From an uncultured Planctomycetales bacterium (GTDB lineage: Bacteria > Omnitrophota > Gorgyraeia > Gygaellales > Profunditerraquicolaceae): 64,000 nucleotides of DNA. The stretch covers positions 438,541 through 502,540 of the forward strand of contig CAZRVK010000001.1 of assembly GCA_964603585.1 (NCBI GenBank), written 5' to 3'. The notes below the pieces were generated by a model. It saw nothing but the letters and a program-made list of their open reading frames with translations, was not told the origin of the DNA and did no database searches. Below, in pieces: positions 12,860-25,903 of this stretch. Numbering within the stretch: position 1 is the first letter of the stretch; every line of letters begins with the position of its first letter. The position numbers and the translations under genes were made by a program.

Positions 12860-14089
12860 TTATTCCAAAACAGTGTATGCCCTTTCGCGATGCTGGGTAA
12901 GGTCCAAACCCATTAACTCGGACTTTTTATCTACCCTGACACCAATAAATAAATCAACTATCTTATATATCACGATCGTGATCACGCTCGTATAAACAAT
13001 GGTTATCCCTACCGCAGCTAACTGCACTAATAATTGTTTTGGATTGCCGAAAAACAGACCGTCCGCACCAGCCGCATTTACTGTTTTGGAGGCAAATAAC
13101 CCGGTTGCGATTGCACCCCAAATCCCGCCAATACAATGGACGCCAAAAGCATCAAGAGAATCATCGTATCCGAATTTAGGCTTAATTACTGTAACCGCAA
13201 TAAAACAAAAAACACTGACCAGCAAACCAATAATGACAGCCGGGACCACACTGACAAAACCTGCGGCAGGAGTGATCGCAACCAAACCGGCAACTGCGCC
13301 TGAACATAAACCGAATATCGTAGGCTTGCCATTATGATACCATTCAATCAATGCCCAGCTTAACCCGGCAGATGCTGCCGCGGTATTAGTAACTACAAAA
13401 GCGTTGACCGCCAACCCGTTTGCCGCAAGCGCACTGCCGGCATTGAAACCAAACCAGCCGAACCACAATAAACCTGTACCCAGGACTACGAAAGGCATAT
13501 TATGCGGAGTAGGCACATTCTTTTCTAAATTAGTCCGTTTGCCTAAAACAACTGCCGTTATAAGTGCGGCGATCCCGGCATTAATATGCACGACTGTGCC
13601 TCCGGCAAAATCTAAAGCCCCCCAATTACGCAGGAACCCTCCGATTGCCCATACCCAATGACAAAGCGGGGCATAAACAAAAGTTGCCCAAAGTAAAGTA
13701 AAAACAAGAAACGCCGAGAATTTCATCCGTTCGGCAAAAGCTCCAATGATCAAGGCCGGGGTGATGATCGCAAACATACATTGAAAGATCATGAACGCCT
13801 GATGCGGAATAGTTCCGGCATAATCCGGGTACGGCTCTAAACCTACCCCGGATAAACCTGCCCATGAAAACCCTCCCCAAAACCCTTTTCCCGGGGCAAA
13901 AGACAGGCTATATCCGATCAAAACCCAATGAATACTTAAGATACACATTACGATAAAACACTGCATCAAAACACTAAGGACGTTTTTTCTCCTGACCATA
14001 CCCCCATAAAAAAAAGCCAAAGCCGGGGTCATAAGCAGAACCAAAGCCGATGAAATTAAGACCCACGCCGTATCCCCTGAATTTATCAT
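12860..14089 (-). CDS. amt: ammonium transporter
   Basis: 409 aa multi-TM protein with Amt/MEP signatures (DFAGGTVVHINAG, GAFAERMKF). Confidence 0.9.
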   Translation of the reverse strand: MINSGDTAWVLISSALVLLMTPALAFFYGGMVRRKNVLSVLMQCFIVMCILSIHWVLIGYSLSFAPGKGFWGGFSWAGLSGVGLEPYPDYAGTIPHQAFMIFQCMFAIITPALIIGAFAERMKFSAFLVFTLLWATFVYAPLCHWVWAIGGFLRNWGALDFAGGTVVHINAGIAALITAVVLGKRTNLEKNVPTPHNMPFVVLGTGLLWFGWFGFNAGSALAANGLAVNAFVVTNTAAASAGLSWALIEWYHNGKPTIFGLCSGAVAGLVAITPAAGFVSVVPAVIIGLLVSVFCFIAVTVIKPKFGYDDSLDAFGVHCIGGIWGAIATGLFASKTVNAAGADGLFFGNPKQLLVQLAAVGITIVYTSVITIVIYKIVDLFIGVRVDKKSELMGLDLTQHRERAYTVLE

Positions 14090-14867: not shown

Positions 14868-16325
14868 CTAAAAACATAAACCTTTCAATAACTCCGGCAA
14901 AAGCGTTTTATAAAGAAAGCTTTTCGAATGTTTACGGCAAAGATATTGCAGGAATACCGGGGATTTCCTATTTAAGAATTCCGGATAATCCAAGGGATGC
15001 CTCTTAAAACGGCTCTCCCATTCTACCCAATCTTCCATTATTCTGGATATCCTCACCCCAGCTTTTTCCTTGAAGGCATAGAGTGTTTTCTGAAAAACCT
15101 GGCTATCATAAAGCCGGTCCATAGCATAGGATAACTTCTCTATTTTCTTTACCTGCTCTTCAGTCATAACATCGCTTTTATATGCATAATACGGGGGATG
15201 CGGATCGTATTTTATCCCAAATGCCGCGGCTTTATCCCGTAAAACCGTACCCGGAAGCAATCTTAAACGGAAAATCACTACTTTTGCCGGCTGCAAAGAA
15301 TAAAGCCAATCCAATGCCTCCATCAGATTGTCATAACTCTGATAAGGAAGTATGTCAATAAGCTGTATTTCATAATAAAGCTTGTATTTATTCAAGTGCC
15401 TTATACCCTGTAAGAATCTTTCTTTATTGAAGATGCGATTAACCGCTTTTAAGGTTTTAAGATTTGTGCTCTGGATACCGATCTCGATATTGTAGGCATT
15501 GGCTTTTGATAAAAGATATGCCATCTCTTCATCAACTAATTCTGCTTTTAGCTCTAAATGCAAATTAGATCCCTGATTGTACCTAACAAAGATCTTGAGG
15601 ATATCCTTGGCCCTTTTAGGATCAGAATTGAAAGTAGCATCCATTAAATAAACTTCATGGGGCTTATGGGAAAGAATAAGCTTTAACTCCCTCTCTACCC
15701 TGGCCAGAGGGAACTTTCTGACTACAGGGAAATTCTTATGATAATAACAATAATGACAACTGGAATAACAGCCTCGCATGGTCTCCAAAGGCACATCAAC
15801 GATTTTCTTATCTTCAAGATCCACCAATCCGGATAAATAAGGTGAAGGGATCCTGCCGATATTACGCATAAGCGGCCTATCCGGATTATGAATGATCTGC
15901 TTATTCTTACGAAAAGATACCCCTTTGGTTTTAAATAGGTCTCGGAACAACTCTACAAAACTCTCTTCTGCCTCACCTCTGGCCACAACATCCACCGCTT
16001 TTTCTTGAAACAATATATCTTCTGCCCTGGGGCTTACTTCCGGCCCGCCCAAAATGATCTTTATCCCCGGCTCCCTCTGTTTTAACCGGCGGCAAATACT
16101 CAAGATCTTTTCAATATTCCAGAGGTAACAGGAAAAACCAATTGCCTGCGGCTTAACCTGAAGGATCTTGCGTATGATCTCCCGGATACTTTGATTTTCA
16201 GGAAAAACACCGATAATAACCTCAAAAGAAGGATTAACTTTGAGCATATAAGCTTTTAGATAATAAAGAGCCAGCTGTACATCAGTACCGGTTTCCAGGC
16301 AAATAGAAGAAAGCAATATTTTCAT
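14868..16325 (-). CDS. B12-binding domain radical SAM protein
   Basis: N-terminal B12-binding-like domain, then a radical SAM domain with the CYSSCHYC (Cx3Cx2C) cluster motif. Confidence 0.8.
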   Translation of the reverse strand: MKILLSSICLETGTDVQLALYYLKAYMLKVNPSFEVIIGVFPENQSIREIIRKILQVKPQAIGFSCYLWNIEKILSICRRLKQREPGIKIILGGPEVSPRAEDILFQEKAVDVVARGEAEESFVELFRDLFKTKGVSFRKNKQIIHNPDRPLMRNIGRIPSPYLSGLVDLEDKKIVDVPLETMRGCYSSCHYCYYHKNFPVVRKFPLARVERELKLILSHKPHEVYLMDATFNSDPKRAKDILKIFVRYNQGSNLHLELKAELVDEEMAYLLSKANAYNIEIGIQSTNLKTLKAVNRIFNKERFLQGIRHLNKYKLYYEIQLIDILPYQSYDNLMEALDWLYSLQPAKVVIFRLRLLPGTVLRDKAAAFGIKYDPHPPYYAYKSDVMTEEQVKKIEKLSYAMDRLYDSQVFQKTLYAFKEKAGVRISRIMEDWVEWESRFKRHPLDYPEFLNRKSPVFLQYLCRKHSKSFLYKTLLPELLKGLCF

Positions 16326-16762: not shown

Positions 16763-17059
16763 ATGGCTAAGAAAATAAGAGTTTTTACCTTAATTCTGGG
16801 AGCTATATTCCTGCTTACCTACCAATACGCTTGGGCAGGAGACAGCTACTCCATAAAAGTTTCCTGTGTAATACCGGCGATACCCGGATTTAACGCCCCA
16901 ACCATCATTGAGAAAACAGCCGTTAAACCTAAAGCGGAAGAACCTGTATATAAGGAATCTAATAATAAAGGACTGATCCAGAAGGAAACAAAAAAAGAAA
17001 TTATCTCAAGAGGACAGGAACCAACTTTAATAGCCTTACAAACAGTATATGTAAAATAA
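16763..17059 (+). CDS. small secreted protein (signal peptide), unknown function
   Basis: 98 aa. N-terminal hydrophobic signal LILGAIFLLTYQYAWAG. The only plus-strand gene in the area and the riboswitch target. Confidence 0.45.
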   Translation: MAKKIRVFTLILGAIFLLTYQYAWAGDSYSIKVSCVIPAIPGFNAPTIIEKTAVKPKAEEPVYKESNNKGLIQKETKKEIISRGQEPTLIALQTVYVK

Positions 17060-17064
17060 AACCT

Positions 17065-19968
17065 TTAATCCTTTGTGCGTTTAAGCGGGATATTATGCAC
17101 AAAAACCACACCCTCAAAAAGGGTGATTTTTTTTGTAATAGATATCTCCGGCAAATAATAAACCGGCACGGTGCTTAGATCCAGGTTTAAAATATGTTCC
17201 CCGCTGGAAACATGCGGAAAAGAATACCTGCCCCGGTCATCGGTACTACCCCGGAGCCCATTCTCCAAGGTCAGAGAAACCCCTCTTACTCCCACATCAC
17301 CGCTGGAATACCTGCCGTCGCCATCGACATCCTCAAACACAAAACCAGATATTTCAGAGCGGGCAACAAGGCCGAACTCCAACCGGGATGTCTGAAAGTT
17401 CTTTATATAGGTTGACTGTGTAGCAGGGACCGTTAAAACAAAACCTGCCGGAATAGTAGCAGTATCTATTGTTACCGGCACCAGCCGGCCGCTCACTTTC
17501 TTAAACCTGAAATAGCCAAAGATATCGGTTTCTTCCGACCGGTTCTTGCCCAGCCATATTTTTACCCCGGATATAGGCGGCTCATTATTCTCTCGTAAAC
17601 CATCGGCGTTATAATCCTTGAATACATATCCGTCAATATCGCCCTCTGACTGCCAACTTAATCCAGTATTCCAAAGATATCTGACCCCGGAATTGAAACT
17701 GCCTTCAAGGCGTTTTGTAACATTCTGATTATCTGCCCATACATTGCGCACTCTGGCAGAAGCATAAATCTCACTGCCTTCAGCCGGGCGGAAGGATAAC
17801 TCGGAATAACCTTCGATATAATCCTCCCCGGAAAGAAAACTCAAAGGTGAAGCCGTATCCTGCTCGTTACGATACGTAATACGGGTGGCATTATGGAATG
17901 GGCTTTGACCGATCTGTCCTGACCAATCAAGCCCGGTCTCATAAGCGTTGGGAAAAGTCCTGTTTTTGCTAAATCTTTCCCGCAGCCAATTCACCTCGGC
18001 GTTTGCGTAATAAAACAGATTCCGGATCAAATCAAACCTTAATCCCGCATAAATACGGTCGTTGATATAATCAGACATATGGGAGGAGAAATTAGTGTTC
18101 TCCTGATGAAAATAGGTCAAAGAAGTATTTATTTCCCGGATAAATTTAAAGCTTTTTGCCAAACCAATATCGGCATTCTGATATCTATAGCGGGATAAAC
18201 TCCCTAATCGGTTTTGTAGAGTATAGTTCAATTTAAGAGAGGTCTTAGGATCAAACTGGTATAAAAACCGCGAGGTAAAGTCTTCATTCGGGACAATGGA
18301 ATCCGCCTGTGCCGGAAAAAGCCTGTCTCTAAAAACATCCAGGCTGCTTTCAAAACTTAACTTTTCATTAAACCTGTAGTTGAGATGAAACAAACCTCCT
18401 AATTCCCCCTGGCTCCAGCTGCTGCCGGTGATACTTAAGAACTTTTTGTTAATATTCCTTATCTGCGCATCAAAATCCAGATTGGGACGGATATAATGAG
18501 TATCCAATGTATTGGCGAATGTATTGGAATCAAAAGCTACTTCCTGCCTTATTTTCCAGGCGCCTAAATCCCAGCTCCCCATAAGGTCATAGCCATAATT
18601 ATGCAAATTCTCTTCTCTATCCTGCCCCCATCCCCGTACAAAATTAAACCGGTAATTACTTCCGGCAATCGGGGAATAGTCCAAGTTTATCCCCTCAAGG
18701 AATGCATCTTTCTTCGTATTAAGGTTAAATGAAAGGTTGCCATAACTGGTAGGATTTTCTTTTCCGTGGAAAACCGTATATTTCAAATGATTATTAAATG
18801 CCGGAGAAGAAAACATTACCCCGCGTAAAGCAATCCCCGGGAATGAAAGATTAGAAAAGTACGGCGGGATATCAAAGAAATCGAACCCCCGAAGGCTGAA
18901 TCCCTGAAAAGGTCCTAATTGCCCATTAGTTAAACCCAAGGTATAGTGGCTTAATTTAGTCGCCTGGTATTGAAACTGATTAACGGAAATTGTCGAATCA
19001 AGATCGCCATAGGGGGTTTGCCCCCAAAGGCTAAGGTTATGATTATAAAAATAATCTGTCCGGCCCAAGTCCCTGAAACTCCGGCCTTTTTCGAATAATG
19101 ACCAGTCCATGGAATAAAGCACTTTAAAATTTTCCGCTAACTCTTCGGCCTGGCGCATCTGATCCTCTAAAGTGGGACCTTCGACCCTGGCAGGGACGAT
19201 AAGAAACTCCAAAGTCCACCGGCCATTTTCATCCCAAACATGCATATAAGTATAGCCGATCTGCCGGCCCACAACCAAAAGCTCATCAGCACCTTGCTGG
19301 ACAACCTTTAAAATATCAGGCTGAATAACCAGAAATCTTTGTATGGATTTGCCGGAAATAATTACCCCTTTGCCGAGTTCGACTTGCACAGGAGCGGTCC
19401 CTTTGCTTAAAGATTCATCTAAAATGACCATTTCCTCACTGATCTCTGGAGGCTCTTCTTCCATAGTAACAGGGGGATCTATTCCCCCCTCACCAGTAAC
19501 GGCTACTTCCTGGCTCAACATCTGACTGCCTAAGACCTCTGTCTGAATAAGATGCGAAGGATCTGCCGGTTGTTTTAAGACCGGGTTTAGCGAATGGGTT
19601 TCTTTGCCTAAGATCAACTGCTCGATCATGATCAATTCACGATCCACGATCTCTTTTTTCTCCGATAAAGGTATTGATGGCACATCCGCAACCCGAGCCT
19701 TAGCGGCCTCGGACTTGCCAGTTTTTTGTTTGATCGCACGGATCTTCTGAATATAATCTTGAGCCGGCTTATATCCCGGGAATATTATCAATGCCTTTTT
19801 GAATTCATCCAGGGCATAATCATATAAACCTTGTTTGTAAAGCCTGGCTCCTTCCTCACAAAGAAATTCGTGCACTGATGCTGCATGGGCGGGAAATACA
19901 AAAATAAGGGTCAGGACTAAAACTGCAGAACAAAGGAAGGTTTTCTTCATTATGTTACTTAAACTCAC
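17065..19968 (-). CDS. large outer-membrane usher-like protein (TPR-like plus pilus-N-like N-terminal domains, beta-barrel, two C-terminal Cna-B/SdrD-B-like domains)
   Basis: 967 aa with a signal peptide. GKSIQRFLVIQPDILKVVQQGADELLVVGRQIGYTYMHVW resembles a secretin/pilus-N domain. The long middle is aromatic-rich and beta-strand-like. The C-terminus has GYVFKDYNADGLRENNEPPISGVKIWL and GFVFEDVDGDGRYSSGDVGVRGVSLTL. Overlaps the chaperone-like gene by 14 bp. Confidence 0.45.
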   Translation of the reverse strand: MSLSNIMKKTFLCSAVLVLTLIFVFPAHAASVHEFLCEEGARLYKQGLYDYALDEFKKALIIFPGYKPAQDYIQKIRAIKQKTGKSEAAKARVADVPSIPLSEKKEIVDRELIMIEQLILGKETHSLNPVLKQPADPSHLIQTEVLGSQMLSQEVAVTGEGGIDPPVTMEEEPPEISEEMVILDESLSKGTAPVQVELGKGVIISGKSIQRFLVIQPDILKVVQQGADELLVVGRQIGYTYMHVWDENGRWTLEFLIVPARVEGPTLEDQMRQAEELAENFKVLYSMDWSLFEKGRSFRDLGRTDYFYNHNLSLWGQTPYGDLDSTISVNQFQYQATKLSHYTLGLTNGQLGPFQGFSLRGFDFFDIPPYFSNLSFPGIALRGVMFSSPAFNNHLKYTVFHGKENPTSYGNLSFNLNTKKDAFLEGINLDYSPIAGSNYRFNFVRGWGQDREENLHNYGYDLMGSWDLGAWKIRQEVAFDSNTFANTLDTHYIRPNLDFDAQIRNINKKFLSITGSSWSQGELGGLFHLNYRFNEKLSFESSLDVFRDRLFPAQADSIVPNEDFTSRFLYQFDPKTSLKLNYTLQNRLGSLSRYRYQNADIGLAKSFKFIREINTSLTYFHQENTNFSSHMSDYINDRIYAGLRFDLIRNLFYYANAEVNWLRERFSKNRTFPNAYETGLDWSGQIGQSPFHNATRITYRNEQDTASPLSFLSGEDYIEGYSELSFRPAEGSEIYASARVRNVWADNQNVTKRLEGSFNSGVRYLWNTGLSWQSEGDIDGYVFKDYNADGLRENNEPPISGVKIWLGKNRSEETDIFGYFRFKKVSGRLVPVTIDTATIPAGFVLTVPATQSTYIKNFQTSRLEFGLVARSEISGFVFEDVDGDGRYSSGDVGVRGVSLTLENGLRGSTDDRGRYSFPHVSSGEHILNLDLSTVPVYYLPEISITKKITLFEGVVFVHNIPLKRTKD

Positions 19969-20848
19969 CTACTTTTACCGATCCTCCTTCTCCAATCTCC
20001 ATTTCTGCTTCTTTTACTATTACCGGGCCTCTGCCTGTTCCGGCTTCTTCCAATGCTTTGCCTAAATTAAAAGTAAGGATTAAATGATACTTACCCTTTG
20101 GCAAAGCTTCTTTCCACGTAGCAGAAAGAAGCGCACTATCGCCCGGGAATGTATAGATATCTTTAAACTCACCCCTGGCCAATACCATATTTTTCTCATC
20201 CAGAATATTGAAATTCCCTCCGGCAGTAATATCAACGTTGCCGGTATTCTTGAACTTTATTGAGATCAAAAAAGGATCGTCGGAAGTTGTGTGCTCGACA
20301 CTGTAATCACTTAATTGACCTGTCCGGTTCAAGGAACCTTCTGCCTCTATATAAAACAAAGTAGCGACCCTGATAGCAATATTCATGCCGACTTTAAGGC
20401 CACCCTGCTCGGGCCCGGGATTATTGAATACACTCTCAAAAAATAAAACCGCATAGTACCCCCCTTTTGCCTCGGGAGGAACCCTGACAGAATATTTAAG
20501 TTTTTGTTTGCTAAAAGGCTCCAGAGTAAACTCGGCGGGAGAAAAACTTATCCAGGTAGCAGCAGATAAAGGAGTTGTTCCGGCAGGGAGAAATTCCTTT
20601 GTGCCATCGGCAGGCGGCAAATAACGCCAATCCTCAAGATACGCCCGAATGCTCCTGGTCTCCGAAGTAACATTCTCGATATTTATCTCCCCGTAACCAC
20701 TCTCACCGGGAGAAATAGAAAGCCTGATCTTGGACTGATCGATATACGGTAGCTCGATCGCCTGGGCAAATTGATAAAAGCCGATGAAAAGAAAAATAAA
20801 GAATATCCCTGTACTTATGATCTTGTATCCCTTGATTTTTCCTCTCAT
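19955..20848 (-). CDS. periplasmic pilus chaperone-like protein (PapD/CsuC-like fold inferred)
   Basis: 297 aa with a signal peptide. N-terminal IRLSISPGESGYGEINIENVTSETRSIRAYLEDW fits the PapD_N-type pattern. Sits between the pilin and the usher-like gene. Confidence 0.4.
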   Translation of the reverse strand: MRGKIKGYKIISTGIFFIFLFIGFYQFAQAIELPYIDQSKIRLSISPGESGYGEINIENVTSETRSIRAYLEDWRYLPPADGTKEFLPAGTTPLSAATWISFSPAEFTLEPFSKQKLKYSVRVPPEAKGGYYAVLFFESVFNNPGPEQGGLKVGMNIAIRVATLFYIEAEGSLNRTGQLSDYSVEHTTSDDPFLISIKFKNTGNVDITAGGNFNILDEKNMVLARGEFKDIYTFPGDSALLSATWKEALPKGKYHLILTFNLGKALEEAGTGRGPVIVKEAEMEIGEGGSVKVGEFK

Positions 20849-20882
20849 CGGCTTCCCTCGATCAATAATATTGTGTTAATGC

Positions 20883-21479
20883 TTACGGTGAAAGCGTTAA
20901 AGTTACCGTGCCGGTGTATGCACCGATGGCTTTTGTTGAAGTAATCACCGATACACCTGAAGCATCACCGCTTCCTGAAGCCAAGGCATAGTATATCCGT
21001 AATCTGGCACCAGACAGATCAGAACTATTGATAATCTTGCTATTACTGTTTTCATAACTAATATAGCCGTTTGTAAGCTGCGTCTCGGCATTTGTTGAGT
21101 TATCCACCTTGACAAATTTTACATTGGTATGGCCATTCAAGGTTTGTGCCGGAGTAGTCGTGTTGGCGAAATTTGTCCTGGTATGAGTTATAGACCAGCT
21201 GCTATGGTTGGAAACTACCGGGGCATCGACGTAAAAATAGGCATCGGAACGAAAATTATTATCCGCGCCCTTTACCAGTGTCCCAAAATCCATACCGATT
21301 CCGGTTAGATCTGCGATTGGGGTATAAACACTGCCCACGATCTTCATCAGGCTAACATTCATTTGATGCACCTCGCCGATATTGGCGGCGATCTTGATAT
21401 TCGTCGCAGCAAAACCAACAGATGCCAGACAAGTTATCAATAACGATACCACAGTAAACAAAAAGATCTTTTTCCTCAT
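20883..21479 (-). CDS. SCPU (spore coat protein U/Csu)-type pilin subunit
   Basis: 198 aa with a signal peptide. C-terminus GAYTGTVTLTLSP matches the SCPU G-x-Y-x-d-T-v-t-v-t-v signature. An internal DFGTL motif resembles that of CsuA/B. Confidence 0.5.
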   Translation of the reverse strand: MRKKIFLFTVVSLLITCLASVGFAATNIKIAANIGEVHQMNVSLMKIVGSVYTPIADLTGIGMDFGTLVKGADNNFRSDAYFYVDAPVVSNHSSWSITHTRTNFANTTTPAQTLNGHTNVKFVKVDNSTNAETQLTNGYISYENSNSKIINSSDLSGARLRIYYALASGSGDASGVSVITSTKAIGAYTGTVTLTLSP

Positions 21480-21543
21480 TGCCCCCTCCTTATTTTTGTT
21501 AAAACATCTTCTCCGTTTAAAACTTTTTTATCCCTCCTTTTTT

Positions 21544-22953
21544 CTATATTTCTGACAAAGAATACGTGACATTGGTCGAATAATCACCCGCCTTTGCATC
21601 CTTTGGACATTCTAATTCATAAATGATCTTAAACTTATCCGAAGAACCCTGATTGTCAGAGGCAAATAAAACAACATTCCCGGATCTCACTTCCTGCCTT
21701 TTAGGGAACTTTAAAGTCCCTTTTGTCGAGAGGCTTTCCGTCCAGAAGGTAAAATACCGATCCGGTATAATATCACCCTGCTTATTAGTAAGAGCCGAAG
21801 TTATCCCCTGGATCACTTGATAGGGTTTACCGATATTAGTCCGCGTTTCAAAAATAACTGCATTCTGCTTCGGAGGAGTAAGCGGGGTAAGGTTAGAAAA
21901 TTCAATGGCATACTTCTGATTTTCTGGCGCAACGGTAAAATCGAACATCCGCTCATTATTCACTTCAATTTGCAAAGTATCGATCTTCTTCTGGGCAGTG
22001 CGCTCTTCTAAAATGAACTGAACCCTCCCAAGATATTTCCCGGCTTTCTGACTGGATATATCACCCAACTGATAAAGTAAAACAAATTCATTATCATATA
22101 CCCCGGGGGCAGATGATGTATAAATGTCCTGCGGCTGTAAGGTCAACGGCGTAAAACGATTTATCGATACGCCTTTTTGTGCATTTTGGATCATAAAATT
22201 TACTGTCCCGTCATTCAGGCGGCTGCCTTCTGCGGATTCAAGGGACTGCGATAAGGATTGGCTAATACTAAAAGGTTCCTTATAAACCCCTTTTATCCTA
22301 ATTAAAACCTCCGCTTTCTGCACTCCATCTTTCTTTGAATTAAGGACAACCTGCCTTGCTCCTCCCGGAGTGATGATTTCAATAGTAGATTTTGCCGAGG
22401 GATTAATATTAACCATAACATCAAGTATTTTAGTGACTTGCTGTCTATTCGATCCAATAGGATTTAAAATAAAACCGATGCGCCCAGAATAATAGCCTGG
22501 TTCTATGTTCTCGATATTCTTTATCCCGTAAACCAAACTGAAAGTATCCGCCTCTCCTGTGGGAGCCGAGACATAAATCACATCATCGGACCTTACCGGA
22601 TGCTCATTGGACATAAACCGGAGATTCCCGAATTTATTACTGCCTCTTAAAGCATAAACGACAAAATTATCCCGAATAACTATCCCGGGATTCTGGTTAT
22701 TCTCCAATGGTTTAATTATTTTCTGGATAACTTCGTAACGGGTGGAGACATTAGAATTTACCTCTAAATTCAACCCCCGGTAAAGCCGTGATTGGTCAAA
22801 TTCTAAACGGAAACCGCCTTCGGTAAGATTAAAAGACAGATCGAAATTATCACTGGCACTGGCAGACAAGAAAACAAGAAGAGAAAAACAAATGAATGCA
22901 AGAGATCCGATTATTCCCGTGGCTTTTCTCACTATATACACCTTTTTGCACAA
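21544..22953 (-). CDS. three-domain SCPU-like secreted protein (putative tip adhesin)
   Basis: 469 aa with a signal peptide. Three repeats each end in an SCPU-like strand (GYYSGRIGFILNP, GKYLGRVQFILEE, GDYSTNVTYSLSEI). First gene of the cluster. Confidence 0.42.
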   Translation of the reverse strand: MCKKVYIVRKATGIIGSLAFICFSLLVFLSASASDNFDLSFNLTEGGFRLEFDQSRLYRGLNLEVNSNVSTRYEVIQKIIKPLENNQNPGIVIRDNFVVYALRGSNKFGNLRFMSNEHPVRSDDVIYVSAPTGEADTFSLVYGIKNIENIEPGYYSGRIGFILNPIGSNRQQVTKILDVMVNINPSAKSTIEIITPGGARQVVLNSKKDGVQKAEVLIRIKGVYKEPFSISQSLSQSLESAEGSRLNDGTVNFMIQNAQKGVSINRFTPLTLQPQDIYTSSAPGVYDNEFVLLYQLGDISSQKAGKYLGRVQFILEERTAQKKIDTLQIEVNNERMFDFTVAPENQKYAIEFSNLTPLTPPKQNAVIFETRTNIGKPYQVIQGITSALTNKQGDIIPDRYFTFWTESLSTKGTLKFPKRQEVRSGNVVLFASDNQGSSDKFKIIYELECPKDAKAGDYSTNVTYSLSEI

Positions 22954-23189
22954 TCCCTGAACAATAAACCCGTGTTAATGCCTTTTAAGAAGAATAAAGT
23001 ATAGAGAAATGGCTTTAAGGATGATCAATAGATGACTTAGGTATAATTAATAATTTTAACATATAAGTTTAATATGTCAACGAATACTTTATAAAATTGT
23101 TTATAAATTGTTTTATATCTCGATCCTTAAGCAATAAGACATTGCCGCATAAAGGATTACAATTATATGGTTCAGGGGTTAAGAAACAT

Positions 23190-23579
23190 TTAGTTTTGTA
23201 TTCGCGGTTTTATTTCGCCTTTTTGGACCTTATCCAGGAAAGCGTCCAGAAGCTCATCCGCTTCTTCCAGGCTGGCAAGCAAATTATCAGAAAGGATCTT
23301 AACCGATTCAAAAACCAGCTTTATCTGCTCTTGGGGATTAACCAGCATAAACGATCCGCCTTTTTCCTCTACTATTTTCTTCGCCTTAAATAATGTTCTT
23401 AGCCCCATACTACTGATATAGGTGAGATCTTTTAGTTCAAAGATTATTGCGGCAGCAGAAGGAAGGATACGAATAACCTCTTTTTCAAGGATATCGTAAG
23501 TAGTAGTATTAAGCTCTCCCGCCAAGGTAAACAAAAAAACCTTATCTCTTGTTTCTTTAGTCGATATCTCCAGTGGCAT
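23190..23579 (-). CDS. STAS-domain anti-sigma-factor antagonist
   Basis: SpoIIAA-like, with the conserved phosphorylatable Ser region DLTYISSMGLRTL. Confidence 0.7.
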   Translation of the reverse strand: MPLEISTKETRDKVFLFTLAGELNTTTYDILEKEVIRILPSAAAIIFELKDLTYISSMGLRTLFKAKKIVEEKGGSFMLVNPQEQIKLVFESVKILSDNLLASLEEADELLDAFLDKVQKGEIKPRIQN

Positions 23580-23688: not shown

Positions 23689-24075
23689 TCATCCACGGTC
23701 CGTTTTCTCTGCCATTTGGATCGCGGTCTTTAATGCAGACTCCGAATCGGTAAATACGCCGGCCTTCGGGATATATGCAAACACCCCGAGGTCCTCGGTC
23801 GCTTCCATAGAGCGCTTGTCAGGGGATGTGGTAAACATGATGACAGGCACTTTTTTATCTATACTGCGCAGATGCTTTAATGTATCAATACCATCCATAC
23901 CCGGCATTAAATAATCCAGGACGATCAACCCTACTTTACTATTAGTAACGGTATCAACCGCATCCTTCCCGCTAAAAACGGAAATTACCTCATACCCCCA
24001 AGAATGTATCTTCCTGGACAAAAGCCCAGAAAAATCCTTATCGTCGTCAACAATCAATATTTTCAGATTATCCAT
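23689..24075 (-). CDS. single-domain response regulator (receiver)
   Basis: ILIVDDD...LIVLDYLMPGMDG and a conserved K signature. No output domain. Confidence 0.8.
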   Translation of the reverse strand: MDNLKILIVDDDKDFSGLLSRKIHSWGYEVISVFSGKDAVDTVTNSKVGLIVLDYLMPGMDGIDTLKHLRSIDKKVPVIMFTTSPDKRSMEATEDLGVFAYIPKAGVFTDSESALKTAIQMAEKTDRG

Positions 24076-24087
24076 AAGTCCCCTCCC

Positions 24088-25356
24088 TCAAGGTATTACA
24101 GGCAACTGAATAGTAAAGGTTGCCCCTTTTCCGATACTACTTTCAACACTTATACTACCCTTGTATTGGTTGATTATCCCGTAAACCATGGCAAGGCCCA
24201 GGCCTAAACCTTCCCCTGCATTCTTTGTAGTAAAAAATACCTCCCCTGCCCTTTTCAGGTCTTCCTGCTTAAAACCAACACCTGTATCCTTAAAAACAAT
24301 TTTTACTACCTCATCTTTTTCCATATATTCTGTACTGATTGTAAGCTTGCCTTGTTTAGGCACCGCATCGATTGAATTCAGGATAAAAGCTAAAAAAACC
24401 TCCTGTAAATCATCACCGCCTGTATTAATAAACGGTAAATGCGGATCAAACACCTTTTCAATTTCTACATTTGAATAACGTAAGATCGGATTTGCCAGGT
24501 CCAAGGCATCATCAATGGCTTTATTTATATTTGTCGGCCTCAAATCATGCCCAGATTCTTTAGAGAATTTTCCCAATCTTTTTACCAAATCGATACTCTT
24601 CTGCTGCATTTTTTCAATTGTCTTTAACATATCGCGCCTGGCACCATCATCGCCGGCCTGCTCTAATAATATCTGTGTGTATCCCTCGGCGTTTGTCAGA
24701 TTATTCAACAAGTCATGCGCCGTATTGCACACAAGATACCCGGTCAAGGTAAGCTTATGTGTGTTACGCAAAGCATCTTCCTGGCGTTTTCTCTGCAGGA
24801 ACCCTATAACTGCAGAAGAGTGGGCGCTGAAATATCCAAAAGCGAATAGGAATGCTATATTACCAATTAGAAGGCTTATAAGCTGCGAAGCAGGCATCCT
24901 ATAACCATATTGGGATGTGGGCGGCAATATCCCAGAATATTCGAATGCTACGATCAAGGAAAAGAAAAATGAAGATGCGATCACTGCGAATAATACGGCG
25001 TGAGTCGTAGAGGCAAACCCCGCCCATAAGATAACAGCATAATAAGCTATACTGATAATGGGGGCATCGATCCCTCCCATGTAATAAATTATCCAGGAAA
25101 TAGAAACAATATCCGTTAACATCTGATAATATTGGAATCTTAAGATATCAACCTTCTTAAGGATAAAAGGATACGGTTGGTTTAGAACCGCTTCGATGAA
25201 GATAAAAGCAAGGAATGCGGCATTTATTTGTGCATATCCGCCAATAAACTTCAGTAACAACAAGAAGGATAACAACAGGGAAAAACTTATGAAGCGGATC
25301 ATCCCTGCCAGCCGGTATTTCTTTATCAACTCATCCTTAAGATCTTTCGCTATCAT
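24088..25356 (-). CDS. membrane sensor histidine kinase
   Basis: Multi-TM N-terminus. H-box region TAHDLLNN. HATPase_c G-boxes (GEGLGLGLAMVYGII, GKGATFTIQLP). Confidence 0.8.
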   Translation of the reverse strand: MIAKDLKDELIKKYRLAGMIRFISFSLLLSFLLLLKFIGGYAQINAAFLAFIFIEAVLNQPYPFILKKVDILRFQYYQMLTDIVSISWIIYYMGGIDAPIISIAYYAVILWAGFASTTHAVLFAVIASSFFFSLIVAFEYSGILPPTSQYGYRMPASQLISLLIGNIAFLFAFGYFSAHSSAVIGFLQRKRQEDALRNTHKLTLTGYLVCNTAHDLLNNLTNAEGYTQILLEQAGDDGARRDMLKTIEKMQQKSIDLVKRLGKFSKESGHDLRPTNINKAIDDALDLANPILRYSNVEIEKVFDPHLPFINTGGDDLQEVFLAFILNSIDAVPKQGKLTISTEYMEKDEVVKIVFKDTGVGFKQEDLKRAGEVFFTTKNAGEGLGLGLAMVYGIINQYKGSISVESSIGKGATFTIQLPVIP

Positions 25357-25507: not shown

Positions 25508-25903
25508 TTACGAATGGGATTCGATAACGCTGACAAAATTAGCTATATCCTCCCTGATCCTGTCATCCAGATTAAGGAACGCTATTCCTAAACGATAAGA
25601 ATCCTTATCGAAATTTGTATTGGAAGTTACTTTTCCCAACAGCTCCAGATCCCCATAAAATCCGCCGCTTTTGCCTACAGATTCGAATAAAGAAAACTTT
25701 ACTAAAATATCAGTCCCTACCGAAACATTGATTTTGGTCAATATCGCCATACCGCCTTCGCCAATATCAACCATCTTGGCATCGTTTTCCCCCTTATCAT
25801 CGCGGATGCGCACATCAGGGACATCGTTCTTACGGTAAACAACCGTTACCCCCAGCTTCACCCTCCGATATTTTCTTTTTTCGACTCCAGAATAGTTCGA
25901 CAT
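25508..25903 (-). CDS. PilZ domain c-di-GMP-binding protein
   Basis: RRVKL (RxxxR) and DIGEGGMAI (D-x-S/G-x-GG) motifs. Confidence 0.65.
   Translation of the reverse strand: MSNYSGVEKRKYRRVKLGVTVVYRKNDVPDVRIRDDKGENDAKMVDIGEGGMAILTKINVSVGTDILVKFSLFESVGKSGGFYGDLELLGKVTSNTNFDKDSYRLGIAFLNLDDRIREDIANFVSVIESHS

Follow-up and report, generated by a model that had tools for sequence, protein, structure and literature searches.

The locus considered here, from a 64,000-nt stretch of Omnitrophota DNA (the window), raises the question of whether it encodes a chaperone-usher (CU) pilus and, if so, whether one of the archaic (sigma, Csu-type) kind that an earlier note on this DNA proposed. Such pili are among the best understood of protein-assembly machines, and the classes into which they are divided (alpha, beta, gamma, kappa, pi and sigma) rest almost wholly on Proteobacteria. 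Gram-negative bacteria make surface fibres with them. The analysis reveals a five-gene cluster, conserved in the uncultivated phylum Omnitrophota, that encodes what looks like a new and very divergent chaperone-usher relative, and I think it rather likely that the cluster represents a previously unnamed class, found so far almost only in Omnitrophota.

I will refer to the genes as A through E. The four open reading frames described earlier are as the note gave them, co-directional and encoding proteins of 469 (A), 198 (B), 297 (C) and 967 (D) amino acids, the last two frames overlapping by 14 bp (19955-19968). The count of four is right for these genes, but the note missed that they lie on the minus strand, and it missed a conserved fifth gene, E, on the plus strand (16763..17059; 98 aa, secreted). 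E is convergent with D, the two stops lying 5 nt apart, and it adjoins D in essentially all loci that have downstream sequence. Each of the proteins A, B, C and D begins with an obvious signal peptide, as read from the sequence: a start rich in K and R, a hydrophobic core, and an AxA-like site. About 100 bp upstream of A stands the best sigma-70-like match in the region, TTGACA-16-TAAAAT (23053..23080, minus strand; 11 of 12 positions, with an extended -10 TG), a candidate operon promoter by match to consensus only. Fifty-eight independent loci show this same order of genes, with the identity of D as low as 26%, so the arrangement goes far beyond chance.

B (21479..20883, minus strand) is secreted and, as had been described, is a protein of 198 aa that ends GAYTGTVTLTLSP and contains the DFGTL motif (GMDFGTL, residues 62-68). 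The N-terminal strand of the mature protein, ATNIKIAANIG (within aa 24-46, which nt 21342-21410 cover), has alternating hydrophobic residues and is not strongly conserved; the most conserved part consists of the C-terminal strands (aa 156-198), the last of which occupies nt 20886-20924. The B family comprises 250 clusters at 50% identity, and family-wide scans gave it no name in Pfam or NCBIfam. Some relatives carry a GH26 catalytic (glycosidase) domain fused N-terminally to a complete B domain, and the N-terminal strand of B is there internal.

A (22953..21544, minus strand, TTG start) is also secreted and consists of three tandem B-like domains of ~150 aa, encoded on the minus strand by nt 22438-22848, 21985-22437 and 21547-21984 (repeats 1, 2 and 3, respectively). 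The repeats claimed for it are real. Each domain is closed by a strand of the form G-x-Y-x-G-x-h-x-h-x-L, a sequence scan finds the motif G-x-Y-x-[GST]-x-[VI]-x-h-x-L at residues 153, 305 and 456 of A and residue 186 of B, and hhalign comparison of profiles shows the three segments to be mutually homologous (probability 99.2-99.8%, E 1e-19 to 1e-27). Repeat 1 was related by the same means to the B family (88.7%, E 2.5e-6), while comparison of B and the A repeats to 15 classical E. coli pilins and to EcpA/EcpD matched only signal peptides. B is a candidate for the major subunit and A for a tip or multi-domain fibre subunit.

C (20848..19955, minus strand) is a soluble periplasmic two-domain chaperone of the PapD superfamily. 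It has the tandem Ig-like (PapD-like) domains of a chaperone-usher chaperone in the broad sense, and its two-domain structural matches include FimC, PapD, SafB and YadV. There is no C-terminal membrane anchor: the end is polar (...EIGEGGSVKVGEFK), with beta strands up to the end. A long F1-G1-like hairpin (aa 130-169, nt 20342-20461, minus strand) carries the alternating hydrophobic residues M155/I157/I159/V161, which an HMM alignment sets against the EcpB donors A111/A113/A115/I117, and this putative G1 donor strand is among the most conserved strands of C (3.17 bits). One proline, on strand D1, is invariant in all CU chaperones (CsuC P59 / EcpB P60; PMC4654587), and the HMM alignment pairs EcpB P60 with P104 of C, a residue retained by 90% or more of 50 family members. 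Archaic and alternative chaperones anchor the carboxylate of the subunit by Arg89 on strand F1 (PMC4654587), but this signature is not found in C: by HMM and hhalign alignments, which may be off by one or two residues, the YYR of EcpB falls on Y131-Y132-A133. K40 and R42 on the first strand of C are invariant, and the classical Arg8/Lys112 anchor is not mappable onto the protein. The description of C as PapD/CsuC-like holds as to PapD, but CsuC is not the closest match: it ranks behind CfaA, EcpB, YadV, FimC and SafB, and C has Ala133 at the place of the Arg89 signature.

D (19968..17065, minus strand, GTG start) is the usher-like outer-membrane protein, and its domains are those the earlier note listed. 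Following a signal peptide (aa 1-29) are TPR-like helices (aa 32-87, nt 19708-19875, with a weak TPR match at 34-65), a disordered linker (aa 88-171), a T2SS-T3SS_pil_N beta domain (PF13629; aa 176-258, nt 19195-19443, match at 193-253, E 2e-9), an amphipathic helix (aa 267-279), a long beta region predicted to form a 26-strand barrel without a plug (aa 282-767, nt 17668-19125), and two beta-sandwich domains of the SdrD-B/Cna-B type (aa 775-967, nt 17068-17646, SdrD_B at ~780-930, E 6e-14). A canonical usher is a 24-strand barrel with an Ig-like plug between beta6 and beta7. The earlier note thought D unlike one, and its AlphaFold model (pLDDT 82.8, above 90 in the barrel region) bears this out, with 26 DSSP strands in residues 282-767 and no plug domain; no loop between strands exceeds 18 aa, which leaves no room for a plug of ~75 aa. 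Like an usher, however, the model has a periplasmic domain at the N-terminus, then the barrel, then two periplasmic beta-sandwiches at the C-terminus. By Foldseek, the PF13629 domain takes the position of the usher NTD and the two sandwiches those of CTD1 and CTD2, and the best structural matches in the PDB are classical ushers, with the barrel alone and more so with the full-length protein.

No such relation appears in sequence comparisons. Pfam did not find PF00577 (Usher) in D at E up to 1, a D profile found no usher chain among PDB sequences at E up to 10, and D scored 0.3-0.8% against a profile of seven E. coli ushers (hhalign), equal to a TonB control. EcpC, serving as positive control, reached just 2.6% against the classical ushers, and since it failed too, the failed match of D is no evidence against homology. 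Two other identities for D were rejected. It has only PF13629 in common with the secretins (T2SS/T3SS/Tad), lacking PF00263, the C-terminal domain with which secretins form a multimeric pore, and the rest is a beta-barrel of monomeric type; and it does not show the combination found in LptD, where a beta-jellyroll stands N-terminal to a 26-strand barrel and LptE serves as the plug.

In the fifth protein, E, an N-terminal strand and the motif IPxxPGxNxP (together aa 26-47; nt 16838-16903, plus strand) are conserved; a charged linker that varies comes next, and the C-terminus again has a conserved element, TxY(S)R. Its N-terminus resembles the N-terminal strand of the B family, and it has no Ig body. 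An LptE-like lipoprotein plug was considered and rejected: Cys is not invariant, and the K-V-S-C lies ~10 residues past the signal-peptidase I site and does not fit a lipobox.

Is the system then an archaic one? Such a pilus (Csu/CupE) would be built of SCPU pilins with the help of a CsuC-type chaperone and a sigma usher, here a divergent one. In the Omnitrophota cluster there are neither SCPU subunits nor a sigma usher: by Pfam, PF05229 (SCPU) is absent from A, from B, and from 113 B-family members (50 close and 63 divergent), PF00577 is missing in D, and profile searches of PDB sequences turned up no CsuA/B, CupE or CsuD chain at E up to 10 (single-sequence searches gave nothing useful). With CsuC outranked and Arg89 gone from C, the archaic reading is largely refuted, and I regard a bona fide archaic pilus as scarcely credible. 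The earlier note had looked to profile matches and predicted folds to settle the matter. Searches of Pfam and NCBIfam gave no match to the SCPU, PapD or Usher families in any of the five proteins; family-wide scans were also negative for these, and produced one stray match to DUF4402 in the C family. The matches are indeed missing, yet C is PapD-like and D usher-like in predicted structure, so what survives of the original proposal is a chaperone-usher-like system, shorn of its archaic Csu type.

The alternative CU pili (EcpA-E, CfaA-E) differ as well. Their chaperones carry the Arg89 signature; their ushers have PF00577, a plug, and 24 strands, as compared to the 26 predicted for D, which has neither PF00577 nor plug; they have an usher NTD where D has its TPR and PF13629 N-terminus, and PapC_C-type CTDs where D has SdrD-B-type domains. 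Their subunits show no detectable sequence relation to A or B, and gene E is extra. The classical pili (FimC/FimD, PapD/PapC) provide the best structural matches of D and the two-domain likenesses of C, but at an identity of just ~10-12% and with no HMM or profile signal; moreover, their ushers have the plug that D lacks, and Fim-type pilins have no similarity to the pilins of the cluster. The cyanobacterial CT pilus (PMC12397347), also considered as a relative, was rejected, the notion of an outer-membrane porin platform being the only common ground.

My preferred reading, which I judge to be probably correct, is that the cluster encodes a chaperone-usher-like machine for assembling beta-sandwich subunits on the cell surface or displaying them there. 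It is possible, if rather unlikely, that there is no polymer, and that the genes serve the chaperone-assisted secretion or display at the outer membrane of single beta-sandwich proteins and enzymes: C would keep A, B and the GH26-B fusions export-competent, D would be the translocon, the monomers would stay attached to the surface, and E would tether or gate. The fusion of GH26 catalytic domains to a complete B domain suggests that B serves as a carrier module or an anchor, and the same reading draws on the weak conservation of the N-terminal strand of B and its internal position in the fusions, on the three domains already covalently joined in A, and on the related WxL/WxLIP systems of Firmicutes, which are cell-surface complexes and not pili (PMC10599100). 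The fusions suit a pilus equally well, however, since true CU tip adhesins likewise bear N-terminal cargo on a pilin domain. Furthermore, usher-like architecture and PapD-type chaperones are otherwise known only from fibre assembly, and the mimicry by E of the N-terminal strand of B is most easily explained by strand exchange. That the likeness of D to ushers is convergent, an unrelated large barrel adjoining genes for Ig-like surface proteins (the candidates being a 26-strand barrel like LptD, an exopolysaccharide exporter of TPR plus barrel, or a protein associated with secretins), seems quite improbable.

Even less do I favor a diderm version of WxL/WxLIP or of the Pam system of CPR, in which the chaperone-like protein would be a structural partner rather than a recycling chaperone. 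Pam pili combine PapD-like chaperones with Ig-like pilins joined by donor-strand exchange (bioRxiv 10.64898/2026.03.03.709456) and so, like the Omnitrophota cluster, place such proteins outside Proteobacteria. The Pam pilin C-domain (NF058581, CPR_Pam_pilin_C) matches the A repeats weakly but recurrently, in 14 of 37 A-family members (best E 1e-7; examples at 15.6-16.7 bits, model positions 93-142). All of this lies below curated thresholds, A of the window scoring 15.6 bits against a cut-off of 55, and the Pam matches span just the last ~45 model positions, that is, terminal strands only; the nine-strand NTD, linker strand and CTD of a Pam pilin are not seen in A or B. C lacks the C-terminal TM helix by which WxLIP and PamC/D are anchored (PMC10599100; bioRxiv 10.64898/2026.03.03.709456), and nothing in those systems belongs to the outer membrane, whereas the present cluster never lacks D. 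The WxL/WxLIP complexes (DUF916-DUF3324; PDB 9i1y) are monoderm, with a TM-anchored WxLIP that binds peptidoglycan, no outer-membrane pore, and no known fibres (PMC10599100); neither PF06030 (WxLIP_PGBD) nor PF13731 (WxL) at significant scores, nor a TM-anchored WxLIP, was found in the cluster.

The chaperone-usher-like machine may be pictured as follows. All five proteins would be exported via Sec, judging from their signal peptides. In the periplasm C would capture B and A by inserting its G1-like strand into the subunit, and would hold the subunit's conserved C-terminal strand as well, as the fold and the alignment with EcpB suggest. The chaperone-subunit complexes might dock on the PF13629 N-domain of D and its two C-terminal sandwiches. 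I infer that the subunits would polymerize by strand exchange through the N-terminal strand of B while being threaded outward via the wide 26-strand barrel. Indirect signs of incomplete Ig folds that would polymerize in this manner are the conserved motif of the C-terminal strand, the alternating residues of the N-terminal strand, and the weak likeness to the Pam pilin CTD. A, as the product of the first gene and with its three B-like domains, would be the likeliest distal or tip component, a role that the GH26-B fusion may take over in some relatives. More speculatively, E could use its B-type N-terminal strand to cap the last subunit as terminator or anchor, or else gate the plug-less pore.

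A bolder version, to which I would give at best a modest chance, makes of this an ancient, phylum-restricted CU class, with a plug-less 26-strand pore for which a donor-strand-only E acts in trans as gate or terminator, with enzyme-bearing (GH26) fibres, and with subunits that share ancestry with Pam pilins. Such common ancestry, if true, would provide an evolutionary bridge from systems of the Pam/WxL type, which lack an usher and belong to monoderm-like cells, to the classical CU pili of diderms.

A PapD-type chaperone in company with a plug-less usher-like pore, other periplasmic domains and a strand-mimic E would widen the design space of chaperone-usher systems, and a plug-less pore would raise the question of how it is kept sealed. 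The Omnitrophota, uncultivated and ultra-small, are believed to live as predators or in dependence on hosts. Discussion of the appendages on their surface has been confined to type IV and Tad pili (PMC10066038), and a conserved fibre, adhesive or enzyme-bearing, would be a new candidate for the means by which they attach to hosts.

The cluster lies on the minus strand, where four co-directional genes were recovered at exactly the coordinates given in the earlier note: A (22953..21544; 469 aa), a three-repeat secreted protein; B (21479..20883; 198 aa), the candidate major subunit, which contains GMDFGTL and ends in GAYTGTVTLTLSP; C (20848..19955; 297 aa), a putative chaperone; and D (19968..17065; 967 aa), a usher-like outer-membrane protein whose gene does overlap that of C by the reported 14 bp. 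The count of four overlooked a fifth conserved gene, E (16763-17059, plus strand; about 100 aa), directly after D and convergent with it. The stop codons of D and E are 5 nt apart, so their transcripts must overlap. This tiny-gap arrangement is seen again in other loci. Within the 3' coding end of D, a hairpin (17109-17125) that has T-runs on either strand could act as terminator of E. A typical Sec signal peptide can be read at the start of each of A, B, C and D. Among the promoter-like sites in the region, the best (11/12 match, extended -10) precedes A by about 100 bp and shares its strand. All five families are present as single copies within the window.

Upstream of the cluster, also on the minus strand, lie genes for a STAS-domain protein (23190-23579, directly adjacent), a stand-alone response-regulator receiver (23689-24075), a membrane histidine kinase (24088-25356) and a PilZ-domain protein (25508-25903), and from these neighbours the cluster may be under two-component or c-di-GMP control. 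A histidine kinase and a response regulator are also directly upstream of A in one related locus, L003. The downstream neighbours, a B12-binding radical-SAM enzyme (14868-16325) and an ammonium transporter (12860-14089), both on the minus strand, are not kept beside the cluster in the other loci compared and are therefore probably unrelated to it. All substantial ORFs at 12.8-26 kb are on the minus strand. GC content in the window is 39-47%; GC skew is below zero in all 2-kb bins from 1 to 64000 (-0.10 to -0.29), its cumulative value dropping monotonically to -6.3, which places the whole window on one replichore.

Every named homologue of B, C and D belongs to Candidatus Omnitrophota. When one genome was scanned for each species, 58 loci emerged, and the label is Omnitrophota for nearly all of them, except for a few third-party MAGs labelled generically "Planctomycetales" and one "Margulisiibacteriota"; in one subgroup, identity in D is only 26-27%. 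When HMMs built for each gene were mapped onto all loci, the order A-B-C-D proved to be retained essentially everywhere with sufficient flank, and E was found in essentially all loci having downstream sequence. Independent gene calls gave C-D overlaps of 19 and 17 bp elsewhere. Extra copies occur at times: two B genes (L003/L047, L017, L034, L049), two C genes (L036, L039, L040), or three B and two C genes (L008), a variation reminiscent of the major and minor pilins and dual chaperones (EcpB/EcpE) of known chaperone-usher (CU) operons. Some genomes have another D-like gene, of about 900-930 aa, adjoining the cluster (L001:2098-4881, L011:10932 onward, L041:319 onward), and L001 and L002 share, beyond E on the opposite strand, an 86-87-aa protein and one of about 1080 aa.

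The sole credible PDB match of the C family profile was EcpB (E 0.004). Profiles were made from annotated E. coli K-12 chaperones and compared by hhalign: C aligned with EcpB/EcpE at 68.7% probability (E 4.5e-5, 190 columns across both domains), as against only 8.8% for EcpB/EcpE with six classical chaperones and at most 6% for negative controls. By profile comparison, then, C falls within the spread of divergence among CU chaperones, closest to the alternative class. Defining features of these chaperones include one proline invariant in all, Arg89 as the mark of archaic and alternative chaperones, and, in EcpB, the donor residues A111/A113/A115/I117, which have been verified by experiment (Pakharukova et al. 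2015, PMC4654587). P104 of C, kept in at least 90% of members, aligns with that proline and M155/I157/I159/V161 with the EcpB donors, while Ala133 is at the position of Arg89. Classical chaperones carry Arg8 on the first strand; K40 and R42, invariant on the first strand of C, are candidate counterparts by position.

The three repeats noticed in A are invisible to BLAST, but profile-profile comparison of 41 family members from related loci found the segments of about 150 aa mutually similar (99.2-99.8% probability, E 1e-19 to 1e-27). Repeat 1 matches the C-terminal two-thirds of B (88.7%, E 2.5e-6, 103 columns) and repeat 3 matches B at 35%, so that A is probably three B-like domains in tandem. 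An exhaustive profile search gathered B-like proteins in about 250 clusters at 50% identity, nearly all of them about 200 aa long and matching end to end; none of those scanned had a Pfam or NCBIfam name. Three longer members from a library of 1.84 billion proteins (P0280, P0303, P0304) have a mannanase-type GH26 glycoside-hydrolase domain fused ahead of a complete B domain (E 2.6e-13 to 4.6e-7). A tip adhesin, in which a cargo domain sits on a pilin domain, is built in the same way. Listed with them is a B-like ORF of 487 aa upstream of A (L024:392-1855). The fusions suggest that enzymes are displayed on, or exported by, the cluster machinery.

The domains proposed for D were borne out by HMM search: weak TPR, PF13629 (E 2e-9) and two SdrD_B stretches (E 6e-14). 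A structure model from 49 sequences (pLDDT 82.8 overall, above 90 throughout the barrel) places TPR-like helices at residues 32-87, a disordered linker up to about 171, a small beta domain (PF13629) at 176-258, a helix at 267-279, 26 beta strands from 282 to 767 and two beta-sandwich domains at 775-967. The even-numbered connections between strands are all of 2-5 residues, fitting periplasmic turns, and the odd-numbered ones of 4-18 residues, fitting external loops. The model thus predicts a barrel with all 26 strands in its wall and both flanking domain sets periplasmic, and without a plug, since its longest connection, at 18 residues, has no room for the usher plug domain of about 75.

E begins with a signal peptide, after which come a conserved strand and then IPxxPGxNxP (2.9 bits per position), a charged linker that varies (1.3 bits) and a conserved C-terminal TxY(S)R. 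Its mature N-terminus aligns in register with that of B (E 1.6e-4 to 3.4e-4, 38-51% probability; controls 0.13-0.49); E resembles a B-type N-terminal strand that has no Ig body.

The best-supported reading, and a reasonably probable one, is a chaperone-usher-like pathway. Sec would export all five proteins; C would capture A and B by strand complementation; the complexes would dock on the periplasmic domains of D; and the subunits, joined by strand exchange, would be extruded through it, with A, or in other genomes an enzyme-B fusion, at the distal end. E might be a strand-only terminator or anchor, or might gate the plug-less pore. B is most conserved towards its C-terminal end, where the strands reach 2.4-2.8 bits and the middle only 1.75-2.1; its N-terminal strand, ATNIKIAANIG, has alternating hydrophobic residues and is conserved only slightly above average. 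What the analysis shows is the gene content, its strict linkage, how the families are related and which folds C and D adopt; the whole route of assembly, with the incomplete Ig fold and the strand exchange, is inferred. The main rival, that the machine exports or displays single beta-sandwich proteins and not a polymer, would also accommodate the GH26 fusions; I consider it unlikely, but the foremost of the alternatives. That the resemblance of D to ushers is convergence seems improbable. D differs from ushers in strand count, the missing plug and its families of periplasmic domains, has no PF00577 match, and retrieved no usher in PDB profile searches with its family. By hhalign it scored 0.3-0.8% against seven E. 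coli ushers, the same as a TonB control, but a genuine usher used as positive control, EcpC, likewise reached only 2.6% against the classical usher profile, so sequence neither affirms nor denies deep homology, and D can be said to be usher-like in layout.

Membership of the WxL type (Firmicutes surface-protein loci) or the Pam type (pili of CPR bacteria) is more improbable still. A weak match to the NCBIfam profile for the C-terminal domain of Pam pilins does recur in the A family, in 14 of 37 members (best E 1e-7), over the last 45 or so model positions only and far under the curated cut-off, a lead rather than membership; and PamC/D and WxLIP have a C-terminal membrane anchor, unlike C. The sigma/Csu system of the earlier note is hardly credible. 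The motif G-x-Y-x-[GST]-x-[VI]-x-h-x-L is indeed present, at residues 153, 305 and 456 of A and 186 of B, and the C-terminal strand gives a weak alignment to the terminal strands of CfaE and CfaB, two CFA/I subunits. Yet no protein matched SCPU, PapD_N/C or Usher in Pfam or NCBIfam, nor did 50 C homologues, 50 close B homologues or 63 divergent B-family members scanned one by one, and when the families of A, B and D were used in profile searches of PDB sequences, neither Csu nor CupE nor usher chains were retrieved at E up to 10. The supposed SCPU signature is therefore no such signature but a generic pilin-like motif.

I found no paper tying Omnitrophota or Omnitrophica to an usher, and type IVa and Tad pili are the only pili discussed in the main genomic survey of Omnitrophota (PMC10066038). 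Databases call these proteins "hypothetical", "SdrD B-like domain-containing" or "pilus assembly protein N-terminal domain-containing", and one JGI record names a C homologue PapD chaperone. The interest of the cluster is moderate to high, limited because its support is computational and the subunit fold inferred. The kind of system is a known one, a chaperone with a usher-like pore and Ig-like subunits, in a version that departs from several defining features of every named class.
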